A DNA stretch of 64,000 bases from a phage. A program made the position numbers and the translations under genes. The stretch is taken from sequence record OZ413489.1; one strand, 5' to 3'. Positions 34,467-44,666 of the stretch are shown here, one piece after another. Each line of letters opens with the position of its first letter. Position 1 is the stretch's first letter. The notes beneath the pieces were generated by a model. The model saw only the letters and a list, made by a program, of their open reading frames with translations. It did no database searches and was not told the DNA's origin.

Positions 34467-36896
34467 ATGAGCATGTGGTCGTTCGACTTTGAGTCATCCG
34501 GTTTGCTGGAAGACCCAGATCTTTATTATCACTGCGGCCTGTTTAAAGAGCTGAATAAGAACCGTTTTATGCTGTTCCTTCCTCTAAATGACCGCACACA
34601 CTACTCCGAGGAGGATATAGAAAAGGCTAAGAACTTCATTCTGGCAAAGAAAACTCTTTATAAAGATTTTGAAGTTCGCATAGCAGATTTTTCAGAGTTG
34701 GAAGGTTGGCTTACAGGAAATTCTGACTGGTCACCAACAGCTTTGAACTGCCATAACTGCTACAGTTATGACTTTATGCTGATGGAAAGATTATCTGGTA
34801 TTCATTTTGATATGTTCCGTGATCCTAAATGTATGGGGACTATCAACGATCACCAGGTTAACCTGTTTGATACGTTGGCGATGAGCCGAATCTTGTGGCC
34901 TGATCGCCCTTTACCAAAAGGTTGTCCGGACTCTGTATTCAACCCGGTTACTAAGAAAATGCAGCCTGTTGGTCCTCACGGCCTTATGGCATGGGGCTAC
35001 GCCCTTGGTAACCAGAAAGTTCAAATTGATGACTGGCGCGATCTTCCGTTGTGGAAGTATGTGGATCGTGTATTCGAGGACGTTATCATCCAGGAGCTGC
35101 TCTGGAAAGAGCTGGTAGCGGAATCAAAAGGTGTATTCTACGGCAAATCTGACATGCAGAACTTTATGTACGATCCGGCCAAAGAGAAGCCGAAAGGGTT
35201 CAAGAAGATCACCTGGAAGAACGCATTACGTCGAGGCATGCTGCAGCACTTCCTGATGGAGCTGCAGGCCCGTCAGGGTGTATACTTCGACATAGATGGA
35301 GCTATTGCTTTACGTGACCGTTGCGATGCGTGGATGAAAGAAATCGCTGATCGTGTTGAACCACAACTACCTTTAAAAGAGCTGTCAATGTCTCAGCGGC
35401 CCAAGTTCCCTGAAAAGCCGTTTAACCAAGACGGGACAATCTCTAATAATGGTTGGAAATGGTTAAAAGATAAGCTTGGCTATCCTGTAGACATGAGTGC
35501 TTTAGAGTTCAAAGCCCTGCCTAAGCGAGCATTTACCTCTACAGGAGATGTCAGCAAGATGGGGATAAAATGGTGTGAAGAGATGGGCTGCAAAGACCCC
35601 GATAAGATGGCTGATTTCTTGAGAGGCTATATTAAGGGCACCTCCACACCACAACCCTTACCTAAAGAGCTGATGGATCAGGCAATAAGTGATCTGCAGC
35701 AGAAGCGAATGCCTGACTGCAAGATACCTATGAAAATCAGCAATCAGGACGACATCAAGCGATACCTAATCAGTGCTGGTTGGCTCCCAACAATGTGGAG
35801 AACTAAAGATGTAACTAAAGACAGCAAGAAGAAAGCTTTACCTGATGCAGATGTTGATGCACGAGTATATGCATATATGGACGAGCTTTTGGAGTCAGAG
35901 TATTGTGACCTAATTATCAACTTCTGGAACAAAACTGATGCTAAGTTCCAGACAACCGTGCACAAGTTCCGAAGCTTTCCTAACTCCGAAAGGATTAAAA
36001 AGGAAGTATTCGGGAAAATACGTAGAAAAGCCAGGGCACTTATTACTTCTCCGCAACTGAAAGATACGTTTGGACACCTATGCCCAAATCTTGAAAAATT
36101 GAACGGAGAGATGGCTAAAGATATCGTCTTGTGGTTATCATTGCGAAACCGCAGATCGGTCCTTGATCCAATCAAGGAGGATAAGGTTGATACTGGTCTT
36201 CTTAATCACCCACGTTTGAAGATTGACCATAAGCTTCCTGCTAAAAGCTCTGGATTAACAAACACTTCCAGACAGAAACACAGTATTTGTGCAAACATGC
36301 CTAAACCATCTCCTAAAGTAGTTATGGGTAAAGAGATGCGTAGTCTGTGGGGTGTTCCTCCAGGATACTTTGAGATCGGTATTGACGGGTCCAACTTAGA
36401 GCAGCTCATCGGGGCTTGGGGTGCCTTTGAGTTCGACAACGGCTTGTATTATGATGTTGTAAGTAACGGAGACGCACACCAAAACAATGCTGAGGCATAT
36501 ACAAAAGTGGCAGGCAGAGAGGTGTCCCGTAACGACGGTAAACCTATCACGTATGGGGTTATGTACGGGGCACAAAAAGATAAAGTTGCAGATATGCTGG
36601 ACATCTCCCCAGAGTTGGGACAAAGGGTAATCGATGCACTCTGGGATGCCAACCCAGGTCTTAAGGGGCGCAAAGAGGATCTGGAGAAATTCTGGGAAGC
36701 AACAGGTAAGAAGTTTATCTACTCTTTTGATGGTCATGCTATCTGGACCCGATCTAAACACTCTTTACTTAATGCATACCAACAAAATGGCGGTGCATCG
36801 TTGTGTGACTTAGTTGGAATACTCATGCACCACCAGATGGTGAAGCGTGGGTGGTACGATGAAGGTGTTCGTCGTATTATTTATTACCATAAATAA
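34467..36896 (+). CDS. Family A DNA polymerase
   Basis: 809 aa; RBS aaggagaac; exonuclease-like segment (LFDTLAMSR); palm motifs DGSNLEQL (motif A-like) and KPITYGVMYG (motif B-like). Confidence 0.8.
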   Translation: MSMWSFDFESSGLLEDPDLYYHCGLFKELNKNRFMLFLPLNDRTHYSEEDIEKAKNFILAKKTLYKDFEVRIADFSELEGWLTGNSDWSPTALNCHNCYSYDFMLMERLSGIHFDMFRDPKCMGTINDHQVNLFDTLAMSRILWPDRPLPKGCPDSVFNPVTKKMQPVGPHGLMAWGYALGNQKVQIDDWRDLPLWKYVDRVFEDVIIQELLWKELVAESKGVFYGKSDMQNFMYDPAKEKPKGFKKITWKNALRRGMLQHFLMELQARQGVYFDIDGAIALRDRCDAWMKEIADRVEPQLPLKELSMSQRPKFPEKPFNQDGTISNNGWKWLKDKLGYPVDMSALEFKALPKRAFTSTGDVSKMGIKWCEEMGCKDPDKMADFLRGYIKGTSTPQPLPKELMDQAISDLQQKRMPDCKIPMKISNQDDIKRYLISAGWLPTMWRTKDVTKDSKKKALPDADVDARVYAYMDELLESEYCDLIINFWNKTDAKFQTTVHKFRSFPNSERIKKEVFGKIRRKARALITSPQLKDTFGHLCPNLEKLNGEMAKDIVLWLSLRNRRSVLDPIKEDKVDTGLLNHPRLKIDHKLPAKSSGLTNTSRQKHSICANMPKPSPKVVMGKEMRSLWGVPPGYFEIGIDGSNLEQLIGAWGAFEFDNGLYYDVVSNGDAHQNNAEAYTKVAGREVSRNDGKPITYGVMYGAQKDKVADMLDISPELGQRVIDALWDANPGLKGRKEDLEKFWEATGKKFIYSFDGHAIWTRSKHSLLNAYQQNGGASLCDLVGILMHHQMVKRGWYDEGVRRIIYYHK

Positions 36897-37163
36897 CATT
36901 GTGGCTTCATAGAGTAATCTATGTCGAATAACCTCTTTAACTGCGGGAAGCCTAAACCTTATGGCAAGGTAATCCGCAACGAAGCGCTCAAAAGAGCGAA
37001 CGCTCAGAGGCCATTCCGAAAGGAAGTAGACCAGCAAGTGCGGTCGAAATGGGAGGATTCCTGTGGTTGCTTATCATAGGAATATGAGATGGTCCGATCC
37101 TACGTGAAAACGTATGGCTATGCACGTAATGGTGCGGGGTAGCTTAACGACCTACCTGAACTA

Positions 37164-37520
37164 TTGGATGAGTACCAACTTCAAGTGCCTGACACACCGA
37201 AGTATAAGACTGTGTACACCTTCGACACAATTGAAGAACTGGAAGCATTTAAGGCAGAGCAGGAAGCCAAACTTCATGTGTTCGACGGTCATAAGTACAA
37301 AAAGGCACGCAAGGATGAGGACGGAAACGAAGTGGTTGACAGAGACGGAAACACGGTGTACGATCCTATCCTGAACGATGACGGAAAGCTTGAACTTATC
37401 TGGAGCCCTGTGGGTGAAATGGTGGTACATTGCTTCTGGCAAGCTTCTAAAATGATGGGAGTCCCGTTCCAGATCACAGGTGAATACTTGTGTGGTCGTA
37501 ATTGGGGTGATTGTCACTAA
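37164..37520 (+). CDS. Hypothetical acidic protein
   Basis: 118 aa; TTG start in the track with a weak RBS, start uncertain; preferred over the overlapping 37114-37374 frame on composition. Confidence 0.4.
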   Translation: MDEYQLQVPDTPKYKTVYTFDTIEELEAFKAEQEAKLHVFDGHKYKKARKDEDGNEVVDRDGNTVYDPILNDDGKLELIWSPVGEMVVHCFWQASKMMGVPFQITGEYLCGRNWGDCH

Positions 37521-40333: not shown

Positions 40334-40699
40334 ATGGAACAAATGAACGATCAAGCGTCGGTTGCGATGAACGAGCAAGAACAACCTCAAGAATTTTTCT
40401 TAGGGTTAAGTAAAGATCAAGTGTCTCTTCTGCTAGTGCTTTCTTCTTTCATGGGAAGACTTCAGGAGCTTACACAACAGCCAGAGGCTGAACAATTATT
40501 CCAGGCTCTGCGTGAAGAAGAAAAATATCGTCGTTTGGACTATGCCTTAGGTTGGGTAGCTCAACAACGAGATATGCTGATGGCCCTCTCTGGGACCACA
40601 AGTTTTGCAATGGGCCTGTTGGCTCAAGTTCAGGACAAATTAATTCAAGCAGGGTTTGCACACACGGCAAACACTAACGAAGAACAAGGAGATAAATAA
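40334..40699 (+). CDS. Hypothetical helical protein
   Basis: 121 aa; RBS ggagatt; stop overlaps the next ATG. Confidence 0.45.
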   Translation: MEQMNDQASVAMNEQEQPQEFFLGLSKDQVSLLLVLSSFMGRLQELTQQPEAEQLFQALREEEKYRRLDYALGWVAQQRDMLMALSGTTSFAMGLLAQVQDKLIQAGFAHTANTNEEQGDK

Positions 40700-41925
40700 T
40701 GAGCGTTATTCAACAATTCGCTAACCCGATGAATCCGCGTGAAACTGTTTTACTAGCTCACGGCATGATTAAACGTGTCAGCATCAAGCCTATCAAAGGT
40801 GCTGATCCTACAACAGGTATTAAAACCACTGTGTGGCAAGGTAAGAAAATTGAATCCAGCCACACCATCTCTTTACTGATTTCTGAACTGGATTCCTCTG
40901 ATAACCTACTTCAAGGTGGTGAAGAAGTTTGGATCAGTATGGGCGATAAGCTGCTTAAACCAGGTCATCAAGACTCTGTCTCTGTTAAAATTGATGACAA
41001 GTGGGAAACCGTAACGCCAGGATGGATCGTAAATATCCCTTTGAAGGCAAACGAGCATAACGGTAAGACCTACTACAAAGGCTCACTGGCTAAGATGGTT
41101 AAGCTGGGTGCAGGAGAGGCTCCAGCAGCGACTCAGCAGCAAAAACAGCAACAAGGTGCACAATCACAAGGCCAGAAGCAGAAACCTCAGCAGAATGCCA
41201 ATCAGGACGTTTTACGCATCTATGGTGATGTGACTCAGATTGTTGGCAACGTGGTTACTGTTAATGACCACAAGATTGGCGAAGGTGCTATGGTTGTCAC
41301 TGATGAGCAGCTTAAAGACCTGGTGGTAGGTGGTCGTGTTGCAGCCATTGTTGACAAAGACACCGGAAACATTATCAGTGGCTTCAAGGCCTATCCTCCT
41401 AAGGCAGAGAACGGCACTCAAGGCTCTGGTGGCAAGCGTAAATCCTCTTACGACCCTATCGGTGTGGAGACGGGACATAGCATCAATGCGTTGCAGATCA
41501 TCCTGGATCGCGGGTTTAAGGTGGACGACCCACTAGGCGTGGCTAAAACACTGCACGTAGTCACCATTGAGCTTAAGAAAGAGTATGCTCAAGCCACCAA
41601 CCGAACTGAAGATGAAGTAGGTGCCAGTGTCGGCAATGCGGTGTTGAACGCTTGTCGCCGTATTGACAAGAAAACGAAAGTTGATGATTTTGCAGCGGCA
41701 ATTACTGCAGAAGCAAAAGATGTCTTGACTAATCTGGCTGAGCCGTTGTACGATTGGATCAAGAACGGTGCTGGGTCCACTGACCATCAAGAACCTCAAG
41801 CTGCCAAACAGGAAGCAGCTCCACAGCAAAACACTGTAGACGCTCCTCCTGTAAATGACGAGGAAGATGACCCGATGGATCAGAATCCAGCACAGTATGA
41901 GTTCGATGACTCGATCCCTTTCTGA
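40699..41925 (+). CDS. Single-stranded DNA-binding protein-like
   Basis: 408 aa; Q-rich low-complexity linker (QQQKQQQGAQSQGQKQKPQQ) and an acidic C-terminal tip ...YEFDDSIPF resembling the SSB C-terminal interaction motif (DDDIPF). Confidence 0.55.
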   Translation: MSVIQQFANPMNPRETVLLAHGMIKRVSIKPIKGADPTTGIKTTVWQGKKIESSHTISLLISELDSSDNLLQGGEEVWISMGDKLLKPGHQDSVSVKIDDKWETVTPGWIVNIPLKANEHNGKTYYKGSLAKMVKLGAGEAPAATQQQKQQQGAQSQGQKQKPQQNANQDVLRIYGDVTQIVGNVVTVNDHKIGEGAMVVTDEQLKDLVVGGRVAAIVDKDTGNIISGFKAYPPKAENGTQGSGGKRKSSYDPIGVETGHSINALQIILDRGFKVDDPLGVAKTLHVVTIELKKEYAQATNRTEDEVGASVGNAVLNACRRIDKKTKVDDFAAAITAEAKDVLTNLAEPLYDWIKNGAGSTDHQEPQAAKQEAAPQQNTVDAPPVNDEEDDPMDQNPAQYEFDDSIPF

Positions 41926-41933
41926 GGTCAGTT

Positions 41934-42512
41934 ATGAAATGCAAACGTTGTGGAGAGGACAAGGAGGCCTCCGACTTCTACACCAGTAACAAATCAACGT
42001 GCAAAGAGTGTTGCAAGAAGGCCAGCAGGGAGGCTGACCAATTTGCTAAAGACTCTTCAGAAAAAGGTGTAATACGTGTGTTGTACAAGGCTCAAAAGTG
42101 CAACAGCAAGCAAAGAGGTCACCCTCCTCCGACTTACACCAAAAAAGAGTTTAAGGAGTGGCTATACCTTAACGGTTACAAAGAGTTGTATGATCAGTGG
42201 GTAGCCAGCGGATACGACAAAAGGAAAAAGCCTTCTTGTGACAGGATAGATGATTTCAAAGGGTACTCTTTTGATAATATCCGTTTAACGACTTGGGGAG
42301 AAAATAAAGACAAGCAGACAGAGGATATTCTGTTACATAGAAGCACCAGCGGTAGACGGTGCAAAAATGTAAGGAGGTTGGACATGAATGGTAACGTTCT
42401 TAAAGAATGGGTATCTCACAACTCTTGTAGCAGAGAAACCGGAATATATATTGGTTACTACATTCATGAAAAAATTCCAGCTCCAGATGGATACTTATAC
42501 GAATACTTTTAA
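41934..42512 (+). CDS. HNH-family homing endonuclease
   Basis: 192 aa; N-terminal CxxC...F...CxxCC zinc motif (KCKRCGEDKEASDFY...CKECCK) and an HNH-like core (SCDRIDDFKGYSFDNIRLTTWGEN). Confidence 0.6.
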   Translation: MKCKRCGEDKEASDFYTSNKSTCKECCKKASREADQFAKDSSEKGVIRVLYKAQKCNSKQRGHPPPTYTKKEFKEWLYLNGYKELYDQWVASGYDKRKKPSCDRIDDFKGYSFDNIRLTTWGENKDKQTEDILLHRSTSGRRCKNVRRLDMNGNVLKEWVSHNSCSRETGIYIGYYIHEKIPAPDGYLYEYF

Positions 42513-42527
42513 CACATAACTAACATA

Positions 42528-42556
42528 GCCCTGCCCGAAAGGGTGGGGCATTTTTG
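42528..42556 (+). terminator. Rho-independent terminator (repeated hairpin, copy 2)
   Basis: gccctgcccgaaagggtggggc + atttttgtat; same hairpin as at 31531. Confidence 0.65.
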
Positions 42557-42574: not shown

Positions 42575-42991
42575 ATGACATTAGAAGATATCATTGTTAA
42601 ACCTGAGAACTATGACCAATACAACCTGTCAACTCAATCTGTAGACCTTGGATGCGCCACAGTTAGTGCGTGGCTGGTTAATGGAAAAGAGCTGGACAAG
42701 TGCTTAGAAGCTCACATGTCTGTTAACAAGTTTCTGGATGAAAATACTCACTGGCTTGAGGGTGCTGGAGTATATGCTTCATGGTTGGAGAGCATGGGCT
42801 TTGACTATCAATCTGATGAAGGGTGGTGGAGCTATCTGGCTATCTGTCCAGAAACACTGCAATGCTTCATGAAATACTCTGAAGATCTTGAGTACCGAGC
42901 GGTGGTTGATAGTGCTATTGCCCGTTATAGCCGTAAACCTTTTTCCCATGACATTAAAACTGTGGAAGAATTTGTTGAAGTTTTCTGTTGA
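42575..42991 (+). CDS. Hypothetical protein
   Basis: 138 aa; RBS taaggagatc. Confidence 0.5.
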   Translation: MTLEDIIVKPENYDQYNLSTQSVDLGCATVSAWLVNGKELDKCLEAHMSVNKFLDENTHWLEGAGVYASWLESMGFDYQSDEGWWSYLAICPETLQCFMKYSEDLEYRAVVDSAIARYSRKPFSHDIKTVEEFVEVFC

Positions 42992-43087
42992 CACAGGTTG
43001 AAAGGTGTGCAATTATAACTTCATAAAACGGGAGGACGCGATGAACGAAGAAAACTGGGATGTATAACTAACAGGAGACCACTGCCC

Positions 43088-43285
43088 ATGATTTATCGAA
43101 TCCGTGTAAGAGAAGATGCACCAGGCTGTTACTTTGACTGGCGTGGGTGGTGGTTTCTCCACCCGATGGATGGACTCACAGATAGAATGCTGGATGCTGC
43201 CCTTTATACAGATACCGACATAGAATATAATCTTTATCTGAAGGACGGTATAGATAACGGCCTATTTGAAGCAATTCCTGTGTAA
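43088..43285 (+). CDS. Hypothetical small protein
   Basis: 65 aa; RBS caggagacc. Confidence 0.45.
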   Translation: MIYRIRVREDAPGCYFDWRGWWFLHPMDGLTDRMLDAALYTDTDIEYNLYLKDGIDNGLFEAIPV

Positions 43286-43353
43286 GAGACTGCGATAGCC
43301 ATGTTTTATGATCTTCCTGTAGCACCACCACCTATTGAACCCGGAGAACCAAG

Positions 43354-43773
43354 ATGATCTATGAAATGCCAAAATTGATCCGTGACGATGCCCAAAACCA
43401 CACCATTATTATGGGTAAACGCATGAATATCCTTTGCCGTAACGATTTCTGTGGTGGAGAATACGTTGCAGACTACTTCGGTGAGAATGGTAAACACCCT
43501 GTTCAGTTCTTCCTTGACCATGAGGATAACATTATCTGGGAGTTTGAAACTGAAGATATCCGCAACCTCTTCATCTTCCTCGGTGTCAAGGTTAAGGCCA
43601 ATTTCGCAGAAGGTGAGTGCGACGATTGTGGATTTTATGAGGTGACAGACTTTTATCTCCCGAGTGGCAAGAACCTTTACTATGAGAGTCACTTCGGAAA
43701 CACCAACATGCCTCAAAGCTGGGAAGAATTTTTCAGTATCGTAGAAGAGGAGCTGGCATACCGTGATTATTGA
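43354..43773 (+). CDS. Hypothetical Cys-containing protein (coupled to macro-domain gene)
   Basis: 139 aa; RBS ggagaacc; Cys pairs (CRNDFC, CDDC); 3' end overlaps the macro-domain start. Confidence 0.5.
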   Translation: MIYEMPKLIRDDAQNHTIIMGKRMNILCRNDFCGGEYVADYFGENGKHPVQFFLDHEDNIIWEFETEDIRNLFIFLGVKVKANFAEGECDDCGFYEVTDFYLPSGKNLYYESHFGNTNMPQSWEEFFSIVEEELAYRDY

Positions 43774-44221
43774 TACTGTAAAGGGAGATTTAATCTCCCT
43801 TTTTAAGAGCGGTGCTGGTCACCTGATCCACGGTTGTAACTGCTTCCACACAATGGGTAAAGGTATAGCAAAACAGATTGCCCGTGAGTTCCCTCAAGCA
43901 TTGGCAGCCGACAAAGAGACGAGACACGGTTGCCTAAGTAAACTGGGTGCGTTCTCCCGATGGGAGCACTTATCTCCGATAGGTATTGTCTACGGAATCA
44001 ATCTGTATACTCAGTTCTACCCAGGGCCTAATGCTGAATATTTCTCAATCCTGAAAGGCTTTGAGCTAGTCAATGAGGTATTCAAGGGATCGACTTTACC
44101 ATTCTACATCCCTAAGATCGGGTGCGGCATAGGCGGTTTGAAGTGGGAGCACGTAGAGGACGTTATTAACCTCGCCACTTTTGATATAGATATTATCGTG
44201 GTGGAGTACAAAGAGTGTTGA
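43763..44221 (+). CDS. Macro-domain (ADP-ribose-binding/processing) protein
   Basis: 152 aa; GTG start overlapping the upstream gene; macro signatures HGCNCFHTMGKGIA and IPKIGCGIGGL. Confidence 0.65.
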   Translation: MIIDTVKGDLISLFKSGAGHLIHGCNCFHTMGKGIAKQIAREFPQALAADKETRHGCLSKLGAFSRWEHLSPIGIVYGINLYTQFYPGPNAEYFSILKGFELVNEVFKGSTLPFYIPKIGCGIGGLKWEHVEDVINLATFDIDIIVVEYKEC

Positions 44222-44246
44222 CAGCTGGCTTTTGAGATGGTATAGT
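44218..44246 (+). promoter_or_regulatory. sigma70-type promoter
   Basis: TTGACA-17 bp-TATAGT overlapping the macro gene stop. Confidence 0.5.
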
Positions 44247-44274
44247 CACCACAACGATTGAGAGAGGGAGCACT

Positions 44275-44475
44275 ATGGAGACTAAAATCTTAATTCTGGC
44301 TGTGATAGATACGACCGAAGGGGCCGTGTTCGAATCTGCAGGAGGGTATTTCTACCTGCCCTACGGAAAAAGAACTTCCGAACCGAGTAAAGATTCAATC
44401 CTTAAAGTGTTCCCTTGTGCTTTCTGGCTGGAGATTCTGGTAGAAGATTGCAGAGGATTGGGGAGAGAATTATGA
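44275..44475 (+). CDS. Hypothetical small protein
   Basis: 66 aa; RBS gagggag. Confidence 0.45.
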   Translation: METKILILAVIDTTEGAVFESAGGYFYLPYGKRTSEPSKDSILKVFPCAFWLEILVEDCRGLGREL

Positions 44476-44666
44476 GAAACAAGAAAGAGCTTTACTCTGG
44501 CGAGTGGATCAACGATCAACAGGTCGGAGAGGTAACCTGCTTCCGATGTTTTACCAGGTACAATCTTAAAACTGCACCAAAAAGTGTTCCAAAGACTGAT
44601 GGTTATTATATAAAAGAACCTCATTGCCCAAAATGTAAATGCCGATTGTACTGGAGCAATCTGTAA
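44472..44666 (+). CDS. Small zinc-ribbon protein
   Basis: Track ORF from 44415; ATG at 44472 with RBS ggggagag and ATGA coupling; CxxC...CxxC (CFRC, CPKC). Confidence 0.45.
   Translation: MRNKKELYSGEWINDQQVGEVTCFRCFTRYNLKTAPKSVPKTDGYYIKEPHCPKCKCRLYWSNL

Follow-up and report, generated by a model that had tools for sequence, protein, structure and literature searches.

A probable free-standing homing endonuclease with a PacI-type active site encoded behind the SSB-like gene of an rV5-like coliphage

Between the SSB-like gene and the next early gene of an rV5-like coliphage (record OZ413489.1) lies an open reading frame (ORF) of 192 codons plus stop (41934..42512, plus strand), which raises the question of whether it is a mobile nuclease gene, of which type, and what it recognizes. 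The analysis was carried out on a stretch of 64,000 nt, hereafter the window. The first-pass annotation had proposed a free-standing HNH homing endonuclease with an N-terminal zinc motif, inserted as a mobile element, coupled to the SSB-like gene and followed by a terminator, with a possible degraded second copy at 36921-37080. The ORF was found to be real and the gene to be an optional, mobile and free-standing nuclease gene. Its 192-aa product is very probably a homing endonuclease, belonging to a large family not curated by Pfam, with a PacI-type active site and spread by homing.

The gene whose 3′ end adjoins the insertion, taken as its 'host' gene, is located at 40699..41925 (plus strand) and encodes an SSB-like protein of 408 aa, in which a beta-rich OB-like N-terminal part is followed by a Q-rich disordered linker, a helical domain and a disordered acidic tail with DDSIPF as its last residues. 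The OB-fold signal came only from the fold search, and a sequence search of this protein against the PDB gave no match. The endonuclease ORF starts 8 nt past the SSB-like stop and has its own Shine-Dalgarno-like motif, read from the sequence as GAGG (41924..41927, plus strand), located 6 nt upstream of the ATG and sharing bases with the SSB-like TGA. Upstream promoter-like sites were no commoner than in shuffles, and no RNA structure masking the ribosome-binding site was found in the window-type junction (z -0.2). Downstream, a short variable spacer delimited by the alignment of filled and empty alleles (42513..42527, plus strand) forms the right junction, from the endonuclease stop to an intrinsic terminator-like hairpin (42528..42555, plus strand) with a 9-bp stem, a GAAA loop and a T run (-19.5 kcal/mol, z -2.6). 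Since the gene is inserted precisely between the SSB-like stop and this terminator, it would act as a promoter-less cassette that shares the transcript of the SSB-like gene but relies on its own GAGG for translation, in agreement with the coupling suspected from the first reading. The hairpin is near-identical in empty alleles (0-1 substitution), where it directly adjoins the SSB-like stop. As the same terminator is thus present in alleles that lack the insertion, it was not imported with it, but is ancestral to the SSB-like gene and now closes the SSB-like plus endonuclease transcript; the terminator initially noted behind the gene does exist, although not as part of the mobile element.

The locus was found in ~117 phage records of close relatives, 52 of which had the gene, while the others showed a clean empty site in which the codons for DDDIPF and the stop are joined straight to the terminator. 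The gene is therefore absent from more than half of the close relatives, opposite to what would be expected of a gene kept at this site in all of them with a non-nuclease fold, an outcome that the nuclease fold described below also contradicts. The polymorphism extends within a species (SYGMH1 filled, FV3 empty), and gene presence has no phylogenetic signal on the tree of the flanks (6 Fitch steps, where random labels give 5.7 and the minimum is 1). The copy of phage V18, which has lost its start codon and first Cys pair, is in decay. Intact copies, in contrast, show purifying selection, with dN/dS values of 0.01-0.13, and no stop was found in the 170 shared codons (residues 23-192) of any of nine full-length alleles compared. 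Moreover, the window gene is identical to that of phage nom (579/579), and every informative site from 41898 to 42520 is nom-like, which delimits a minimal donor-derived patch (41898..42520, plus strand) comprising the endonuclease gene and short co-converted flanks and ending before 42661. The right flank (42701-44600), in contrast, is 98.4% identical to the empty phage MaxTheCat and 90.8% to nom. The window is thus an 'empty-type' MaxTheCat/A6-1-like backbone with a donor-like patch, that is, a recent transfer into this genome. Because rV5-like phages recombine heavily, ordinary recombination might in principle also produce a scattered distribution and a mosaic tract, with no help from an endonuclease. 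Nevertheless, the mobile insertion first suspected from a single genome was supported by every test run, including the empty alleles, the mosaic tract and the polymorphism. The IMG/VR loci fetched through the downstream gene were uninformative on the insertion site, as 24 of the 26 belonged to unrelated ~40-kb elements that had nothing but this gene in common.

Regarding the protein, the predicted domain order is an N-terminal Cys4 zinc ribbon, a helical insert, a PacI-type ββα-metal (His-Me finger) core and a C-terminal I-HmuI/NUMOD-like DNA-binding domain. The zinc motif of the earlier reading was confirmed as a four-Cys zinc-ribbon module (C3, C6, C23 and C26; 41940..42011, plus strand), which aligns to PacI residues 4-27 with its cysteines on the CxxC...CxxC pairs. 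The four cysteines were invariant in the A2 alignment and present in at least 120 of 124 representatives; the module appears homologous to the first Cys4 site of PacI and is predicted to bind metal. The same module is found in the endonuclease of phage KE23, fused there to a canonical HNH core. The nuclease core spans residues 100-134, PSCDRIDDFKGYSFDNIRLTTWGENKDK (42231..42335, plus strand), as delimited by the AF2 secondary structure (E100-104, E116-120, H121-134) and the alignment to PacI D92/R93/Y100/N104/N113, and shows the two antiparallel strands followed by a helix that define the ββα-metal fold. Among the diverse representatives, S101, D103, R104 and Y111 were conserved in 124/124, N124 in 122/124 and N115 in 120/124. 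In particular, D103, N115 and N124 align to the metal-ligand or structural Asn positions of PacI (D92, N104 and N113, respectively), and Y111 aligns to PacI Y100, the loop tyrosine within D-R-x-D...G-Y-S. The putative C-terminal domain (residues ~145-192; 42366..42509, plus strand) was placed by the family profile, which aligns through I-HmuI residues 73-171 (E 2.4e-3), and PF22083 was found in 16 of 37 relatives, the query alone falling below threshold.

The position of the catalytic histidine, at the end of strand 1, is occupied by R104, which is invariant in 37/37 relatives and in the 124/124 representatives. A canonical H-N-H motif is absent from the 192-aa protein, and Pfam HNH models matched neither the query nor the 37 relatives. 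Against Pfam and NCBIfam the query matched no curated nuclease family, PHROGs alone giving a match, and on its own it was below threshold for every Pfam DNA-binding or nuclease model. The family counts >2,000 clusters (50% identity, E ≤ 1e-30). With its catalytic His replaced and an active site of the PacI tyrosine type, the protein merits the label 'HNH' at the superfamily level only: the nuclease fold implied by that name was recovered, but as a His-less PacI-type variant. By homology to PacI, D103 and N124 would hold one divalent metal on the scissile phosphate, and Y111, in the inter-strand loop, would replace the missing histidine as general base or nucleophile, with R104 at the canonical His position. 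The active-site chemistry of PacI, including the role of its loop tyrosine, has been described (PMC5714182, PMC4081073; also PMC3384342). The structural analogy is incomplete, since the second zinc site of PacI is missing: its HCGYCG segment has no counterpart in the alignment, and T120/E123 stand at the positions of PacI C109/C112.

The same His-to-Arg change could mean that activity was lost and that the protein is a catalytically dead HNH relic acting as a DNA-binding protein or regulator. Such a reading would fit the lack of a histidine at the canonical position and of any Pfam HNH match, the inactivity of some His-less groups of the His-Me finger superfamily (PMC5714182), and the single PacI-like Skunavirus enzyme tested, which is not reported as excluding phage in the parts of that study drawn on here (PMC12724721). 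However, in PacI, a functional restriction enzyme, the same D-R...Y...N...N constellation forms the active site, and the conservation of these residues (D103, R104 and Y111 at 124/124, N124 at 122/124) is hard to explain for a non-catalytic scaffold. Furthermore, a dead protein would not yield the population pattern of a mobile element, and this explanation is considered very unlikely.

The neighbourhood of the gene bears on its role. In a genomic-context survey covering about 90 contexts, adjacency to an SSB gene was seen in 10 of 11 contexts found through protein look-ups and in 10 of the 10 closest IMG/VR relatives, and the overall association in IMG/VR was 13/64, compared with 3/479 control ORF ends (p 1e-10). 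The upstream genes were of the Pfam SSB type, of the DUF736 type with the tip, or of the 400-aa OB-fold type. No SSB linkage was found in more distant family members, so the inference of a target is limited to this clade. From this context, the clade appears to be specialised on DNA encoding the conserved SSB C-terminal tip (D-D-x-I-P-F-stop), and GAYGAYGAYATHCCNTTYTAA is the putative recognition-site sequence.

The repeated adjacency to SSB or helicase genes in unrelated phages, the predicted co-transcription with the SSB-like gene and the strong purifying selection could also be read as the marks of a domesticated accessory nuclease, kept beside SSB genes for its function and not by homing, and aiding the SSB-like protein in replication or recombination through branch or junction processing. 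The name endonuclease VII, attached to phrog_1035 and to many GenBank records, points in the same direction. T4 endonuclease VII (PF02945) is likewise a member of the broad His-Me finger superfamily with a zinc-binding N-terminus, but its motif is another one, and the gene described here is non-essential with nothing marking it as a junction resolvase. The Endonuclease_7 model (PF02945) matched neither the query (E up to 1) nor the 37 relatives (E up to 0.1), and the name looks like an annotation carry-over. Moreover, the gene is dispensable, more than half of the near-identical phages lacking it at a clean site, and one copy has decayed. The divergence between filled and empty alleles is limited to the junction, the predicted DNA-binding tail is of the sequence-specific I-HmuI type that is typical of homing enzymes, and the donor patch of the window is predicted by homing, not by a fixed functional partnership, all of which makes domestication very unlikely. 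Finally, a restriction-like phage weapon that attacks short sites in host or competitor DNA but does not insert its own gene where it cuts is highly improbable: although the closest solved relative is the restriction enzyme PacI and viral PacI homologs have been speculated to be 'viral restrictases' (PMC5714182), PacI works as a homodimer of 142-aa subunits that each hold two zinc sites, the protein found here has no second site and a predicted I-HmuI-like tail of the monomer type, the single precise insertion site at a conserved coding sequence, the empty alleles, the recoded junctions and the conversion tract are features of homing, and the marker exclusion of competitors is a by-product of homing anyway (PMC2988022).

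Under the preferred reading, homing, the junction should carry the trace of a target. The last 30 nt of the SSB-like gene (41896..41925, plus strand) were found to be recoded, the tail before the stop being QYEFDDSIPF in the window vs. QYAFDDDIPF in empty alleles. Divergence between filled and empty alleles was 0.308 in these 30 nt (0.375 for window-type alleles) and 0.04-0.06 in every more distant bin; to the right of the insertion it was 0.121 in the first 30 nt vs. 0.02-0.05 further out. The spike is 6- to 8-fold and confined to ≤30 nt of the junction. The stretch 41896..41925 is probably a disrupted (immune) version of the endonuclease target, although part of the recoding may stem from differences between ancestral SSB tails and not from selection for immunity, because the rV5-type junction has a whole alternative tail that is also present in endonuclease-free SSBs. 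Two tail types were distinguished, the short DDSIPF and a long one (…IPFAPVGLQYGKSRIHAL). The latter corresponds to a 15-aa APxGLQY...H.. extension found in rV5-type alleles and in many SSBs without the endonuclease. Its interpretation as read-through into the inserted DNA, a by-product of an overlapping endonuclease start, was rejected, since the same tail occurs in SSBs with no downstream endonuclease (HK75, phiV039C and inny) and in L067, where no overlap exists.

By analogy with the classical intronless homing of T-even phages, in a mixed infection with an empty relative the enzyme would cut or nick the empty allele at or near the SSB-like 3′ end. We infer the cleavage activity, the place of the cut and its nature, either a nick or a double-strand break, from this analogy and the homology to PacI. 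Recombinational repair from the carrier genome would then copy the gene together with tens to hundreds of bases of flank, and carrier genomes would be protected from their own enzyme by the recoding of the final ~30 nt of their SSB-like gene and of the spacer at the junction. A broader version, which is possible but offered tentatively, is that the clade homes to SSB-tip DNA and jumps between non-homologous genes, since unrelated replisome proteins share the short tip coding sequence. The range of such jumps would include Pfam SSBs, the 400-aa OB-fold SSB-like protein of Vequintavirinae and the DUF736 protein, as well as, for a sister clade, DnaB-type helicases ending in EEVPF. The element might carry a donor C-terminal tail along, possibly the 15-aa extension of rV5-type alleles, and the shared zinc ribbon, which in KE23 is fused to a canonical HNH core at the same kind of site, might be the target-recognition part.

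Several known systems share parts of this architecture. PacI (PDB 3LDY/3M7K; His-Me finger 'group 20', Jablonska et al. 2017) has the D-R...Y...N...N site and the first Cys4 site in common, but it is a type IIP restriction enzyme that acts as a homodimer, carries a second Cys4 site (HCGYCG plus C109/C112) and lacks a separate DNA-binding domain. In contrast, the phage protein has a helical insert in place of the second site, a putative C-terminal I-HmuI-like domain and the behaviour of a mobile gene; the extra tail, as recognized by profile, argues for a binding mode unlike that of PacI. I-HmuI (PDB 1U3E) and the HNH_3/NUMOD enzymes combine a ββα-metal core with a NUMOD/helix-turn-helix tail, as predicted for the present protein, and likewise occur in the neighbourhood of phage replication genes. 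However, I-HmuI is an intron-encoded, strand-specific nickase with a canonical D-H general base, whereas the present gene is free-standing, with Arg/Tyr for His and an added N-terminal zinc ribbon. T4 SegG and the free-standing enzymes of T-even phages are also promoter-less cassettes in a replication cluster beside an SSB gene (SegG lies beside gene 32 and cuts it), with the same presence/absence polymorphism, flank co-conversion and marker exclusion logic (PMC2988022). On the other hand, SegG is a GIY-YIG enzyme, T4 gp32 has no DDIPF tip, and the cut made by T4 free-standing enzymes is often hundreds of bases away from the insertion, while the divergence footprint observed here lies within ~30 nt. 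A similar description concerns the 'PacI-like' free-standing HNH genes of lactococcal Skunavirus, which are likewise optional, have PacI as best HHpred match and were read as homing endonucleases (PMC12724721, 2025). In the parts of that study drawn on here, these genes were rare (2/268), the two genes named as reducing plaquing in vivo were I-HmuI-like, the PacI-like enzyme tested not being among them, and the account includes no analysis of active-site substitutions and no link to SSB genes.

The gene would add one more free-standing homing endonuclease to a phage group already full of them, and several GenBank records already name it 'putative homing endonuclease'. Its large family is not covered by any Pfam nuclease model, and its members widely go under the wrong name "endonuclease VII"; as the active site is of the rare tyrosine-for-histidine PacI type, annotation pipelines based on H-N-H will miss it. 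The steady position behind SSB genes of unrelated phages offers a concrete candidate target in the bases that encode the SSB acidic tip. If the element did jump between non-homologous genes and take donor tails along, a homing endonuclease would be a vehicle by which phages exchange the C-terminal interaction tails of their replication proteins. Furthermore, this naturally occurring collection of PacI-type enzymes, whose sites are long and presumably asymmetric, could help to study tyrosine-for-histidine one-metal nucleases.

The supposed second copy at 36921-37080 was rejected. A tblastn search of the 192-aa protein against the six frames of the window returned only the gene itself, and blastp of the 52-aa 'remnant' peptide against the 192-aa protein gave no match. 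The segment is instead the RNA core of an ORF-less group I intron of 276 nt (36891..37166, plus strand; Rfam RF00028, 64.7 bits, E 4e-14, cutoff 50), which is not part of the endonuclease element and splits the family-A DNA polymerase gene into exon 1 (34467-36890) and exon 2 (37167-37520), both based on the intron-less allele of nom. The intron ends were set by this intron-less polymerase and by the ORF-containing allele of FFH2, and the phrog_8888 match is split over both polymerase ORFs. Removal of the intron at the junction CAT|...TTG|GAT restores IIYYH|DEYQ in frame, with an exon U at the 5′ splice site and a terminal G. Splicing is predicted here, and it does occur in the polymerase introns of phage CB7, a relative (PMC7344957). 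In some relatives, the polymerase intron carries its own canonical I-HmuI-like HNH gene. In the window and in records of the same allele type (e.g. rV5 and MaxTheCat), exon 2 appears as a CDS of its own or under the name 'hypothetical protein', which is likely a mis-annotation.

The window derives from an rV5-like Escherichia phage of the subfamily Vequintavirinae (genus Vequintavirus), and the ~2.5 kb around the endonuclease gene were 96-98% identical to the phages nom, WalterGehring, navn, rV5 and many others. The endonuclease gene (41934-42512, + strand, ATG to TAA, 192 aa) was preceded by a GAGG motif 6 nt before its ATG and separated by 8 nt from the TGA stop of the upstream gene (40699-41925, + strand, 408 aa), which is plausibly an SSB. 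Downstream, a terminator-like hairpin was found at 42528-42555 (9-bp GC-rich stem, GAAA loop and T run). Since promoter-like sites around the endonuclease gene were not more frequent than in shuffled sequence, it looks like a promoter-less cassette ending the transcription unit of the upstream gene. Free-standing homing endonucleases are classical in phages. Abundant HNH genes are a known trait of the Vequintavirinae (PMC7344957), and BASEL records already call this gene a "putative homing endonuclease". On the other side of the hairpin lies the next gene (42575-42991, phrog_8967). Homologs with ~66% identity occurred in two dozen IMG/VR elements that were ~40 kb long and had no SSB-like gene; these could be prophages or unrelated phages having that single gene in common.

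The first-pass annotation had proposed a free-standing endonuclease inserted as a mobile element between the SSB-like gene and the next one. The finding is real and this main interpretation is right. The gene was present in only 52 of the 117 phage records holding the locus, with precise empty sites, a scattered distribution on flank trees and a donor patch in the window. The comparison with relatives lacking the insertion, suggested at that stage, yielded clean empty alleles (MaxTheCat, FV3, Gotham, A6-1, FFH2, ECP32, YP-6 and Murica), and the locus spanned 1914 bp without the gene versus 2501 bp with it. In the empty alleles, the SSB-like gene ended in …GATGATGACATCCCATTCTAA (…DDDIPF-stop) and its 3' end directly abutted the same terminator as in the window; therefore, the element is inserted exactly at the junction of the SSB-like stop codon and that gene's own terminator. 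The terminator that had been noted behind the endonuclease gene is thus present, but it was not brought by the insertion. Two types of filled alleles were found. The window type (192 aa; nom, bov10K2, PMBT16 and others) kept the stop immediately after IPF, while the rV5 type (207 aa) differed from it over the first ~110 nt and had lost the SSB-like stop, so that the SSB-like protein was extended (…IPF-APVGLQYGKSRIHAL-stop) and overlapped the endonuclease start. The 3' end of the empty YP-6 allele (QYEFCDDIPF-stop) was closer to the rV5-type filled alleles than to the other empty ones, which could mean either that the element was lost precisely or that this empty site is resistant. Separately, sixteen GenBank 'Campylobacter phage' records (MG0656xx, host Campylobacter jejuni) were 96-97% identical at the locus to E. 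coli rV5-like phages, an identity that suggests mislabelled hosts or coliphages contaminating that data set.

A total of 17 alleles, each with 1.5-kb flanks, were aligned. The divergence between filled and empty alleles was 0.308 at the 3' end of the SSB-like gene (last 30 nt) and 0.121 just downstream (first 30 nt), and equalled the within-group diversity in the other bins to ~1 kb on either side (0.02-0.08; 0.04-0.06 on the left) as well as past ~1 kb on the right (up to ~0.10-0.12). On neighbour-joining trees of the flanks, presence or absence of the gene required 6 changes, compared to a mean of 5.7 for random labels and a minimum of 1, and filled/empty sister pairs included the window with A6-1/MaxTheCat, JES2013 with FFH2 and WM with YP-6. 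Moreover, both states occurred within one ICTV species (SYGMH1 filled, FV3 empty). In phage V18, a ~44-nt deletion (approximately window 41927-41970) had removed the start codon along with the first pair of Cys residues, leaving the remaining 170 codons open, and no full-length endonuclease CDS was annotated; this copy is decaying. A comparison of nine full-length alleles across their 170 shared codons (residues 23-192) gave pairwise dN/dS of 0.01-0.13 and no stop in any of them.

The window locus itself is a mosaic. Its right flank (1.9 kb) was 98.4% identical to the empty MaxTheCat allele but just 90.8% to nom; on the left, too, the majority of informative sites were MaxTheCat-like, whereas the endonuclease gene was identical to that of nom at 579 of 579 positions and all informative sites between 41898 and 42520 were nom-like. 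The donor patch ended before 42661 on the right and faded between ~41400 and ~41900 on the left. A gene with short co-converted flanks is the pattern left by a homing event; ordinary recombination is a formal alternative for the mosaic, as rV5-like phages recombine heavily. Some 1 kb past the endonuclease gene, the dense block 43375-43781 (ORF 43354-43773, 139 aa) showed ~90 differences in 400 bp between window/MaxTheCat and nom, with 2-5% in its surroundings, and may be a replaced allele or a further recombination hot spot.

Regarding the enzyme class, no Pfam match to an HNH domain was obtained for the query or for any of its 37 homologs (34-90% identity). In their alignment, C3, C6, C23 and C26 were invariant, as was the block P-S-x-D-R-[IL]-D-D-x-K-G-Y-S-x-x-N-I-x-L-x-T-W-x-x-N, which looks HNH-like except for an Arg at the position of the general-base His. 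The HNH designation of the first-pass annotation thus holds at the level of the superfamily, but not for the catalytic His or a recognizable Pfam domain. The restriction endonuclease PacI was the top match in every structure-aware search, the homing endonuclease I-HmuI being the other specific one: the family profile against all PDB sequences matched PacI from the N-terminal ribbon through VDRSDSFEGYSPQNARL…CN (E 3.8e-4) and I-HmuI over the core and C-terminal domain (E 2.4e-3), hhalign gave PacI 92% probability (E 5.5e-7), and Foldseek with the AF2 model (pLDDT 92.2) gave probabilities of 1.00 and 0.97 for PacI and I-HmuI, respectively. PacI is the textbook exception in its superfamily, lacking the histidine, with a Tyr of the inter-strand loop placed as general base or nucleophile and a single metal ion held by one Asp and one Asn (PMC5714182, PMC3384342, PMC4081073). 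Residues D103, R104, Y111, N115 and N124 aligned to PacI D92, R93, Y100, N104 and N113, respectively, and the predicted active site is PacI-type and unusual. An exhaustive profile search (50%-identity clusters) found 2,034 family representatives at E ≤ 1e-30. In the 124 full-length ones, S101, D103, R104 and Y111 were conserved in all, N124 in 122, N115 in 120 and each ribbon Cys in at least 120, and His never appeared at the canonical position. Unlike PacI, the 192-aa protein has a helical insert in place of the second Cys4 site and a probable I-HmuI/NUMOD-type C-terminal domain; PF22083 was found in 16 and NUMOD1 in 12 of the 37 relatives. In PHROGs, the query matched phrog_1035 "endonuclease VII" (E 2.7e-32) and, weakly, HNH phrogs; no support was found for the name "endonuclease VII". 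Among Skunavirus phages, free-standing "PacI-like" HNH genes were described in 2025 as a rare class (PMC12724721).

The association with SSB genes extended beyond this locus. In other Vequintavirinae-like contigs (SSB-like protein 75%, 65% and 38% identical), the endonuclease lay directly behind the SSB-like gene even with different downstream genes, and in unrelated smaller phages it followed canonical SSBs of 157-173 aa, for most of which PF00436 was recorded or confirmed. These ended in …DEDSIPF, …DDSEIPF, …EEDQIPFNEAK, …EDEIPFNEVQ and …DDKIPFN, each followed by the stop. The exception was the most distant homolog (37% identity), from a crAss-like phage. Among 80 IMG/VR loci, the ten that were most closely related (full length, ≥41% identity) all lay behind a gene with the C-terminal tip (D-D-x-I-P-F-stop), and the tip motif appeared at 13 of 64 upstream genes versus 3 of 479 other ORF ends of the same loci (Fisher p 1e-10). 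More distant family members were located elsewhere, one sub-cluster behind DnaB-type helicases ending in …EEVPF. Because the sole feature common to the upstream genes was the short tip-coding DNA (GAnGAn…ATHCCnTTY-stop), we infer that this would be the recognition region of the endonuclease clade, and a target in the SSB tip-coding sequence is probable. T4 SegG lies next to the T4 SSB gene, which it cuts, although it is a GIY-YIG enzyme (PMC2988022). In the literature searched, neither the link to the SSB tip nor this family's size and uniform active site turned up in any report, and the finding would gain interest if cross-gene homing on the tip were demonstrated. Apparent strong hairpins were seen by eye in five small-SSB contexts (L052 3941-4000, L054 1304-1367, L056 2426-2500, L057 2446-2500 and L060 2450-2500), occupying the 50-80 nt from SSB stop to endonuclease start, while the window-type junction had none; some covered the endonuclease Shine-Dalgarno, which would recall the translational control of T4 homing endonucleases.

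The tail of the rV5-type SSB-like protein was also found elsewhere, as tblastn with …DDIPFAPVGLQYGKSRIHAL matched 238 phage records, including annotated SSBs of Vibrio phages, lambdoid HK75/mEpX2 and Justusliebigvirus phage inny, plus primase/helicases. Its consensus, ~15 aa past the SSB tip (…DDDIPF-APxGLQYxxxx[HY]x[ILF]-stop), shifts IPF off the C-terminus. The tail appeared in unrelated phages with or without a downstream endonuclease (rV5, L046 2826-2871; L067; L144-L147), not in the window allele; HK75, phiV039C and inny carried it with no downstream endonuclease, and L067 kept it at the protein level on different DNA without overlapping the endonuclease ORF. The 15-aa extension is not junk, and the simplest, if unproven, reading is a natural alternative SSB C-terminus which, along with the endonuclease, reached the rV5-type allele from a donor SSB gene. 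Furthermore, the Seunavirus KE23, a Salmonella phage, had a 151-aa endonuclease (L147 1253-1705) behind a primase/helicase that also carries this tail. It had only the N-terminal zinc-ribbon module in common with the family of the 192-aa protein (E 4.5e-15), followed by a canonical CxxC/HNH core, an arrangement suggestive of domain shuffling between endonucleases at the same kind of site.

Finally, a degraded second copy had been wrongly supposed at 36921-37080, after the DNA polymerase gene; that peptide is a group I intron core read as protein, with no similarity to the 192-aa protein, and in FFH2 its frame ended after 8 codons. As judged by its PHROG matches, the polymerase is split (phrog_8888 positions 1-185 in ORF 34467-36896 and 185-295 in ORF 37164-37520), and the Rfam match to a group I intron covered 36881-37116 (64.7 bits, E 4e-14). 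The intron-less allele of nom reads …ATTATCTATTACCAT/GACGAATATCAG…, and therefore the intron spans 36891-37166 (276 nt); it is preceded by U and ends in G, and its removal restores …IIYYH/DEYQ…. It is thus an ORF-less group I intron in a family-A DNA polymerase gene (+ strand; exons 34467-36890 and 37167-37520). Three main states occurred in relatives: the region spanned 1125 bp without the intron, 1401 bp with the ORF-less intron as in the window and 1967 bp where a loop of the intron holds a canonical HNH gene of 169 aa (e.g. FFH2), while a few larger alleles reached ~2.9-3.0 kb (241Ecol014PP and WM). In records with the ORF-less intron, such as rV5 and MaxTheCat, exon 2 was annotated as a separate CDS or a hypothetical protein.
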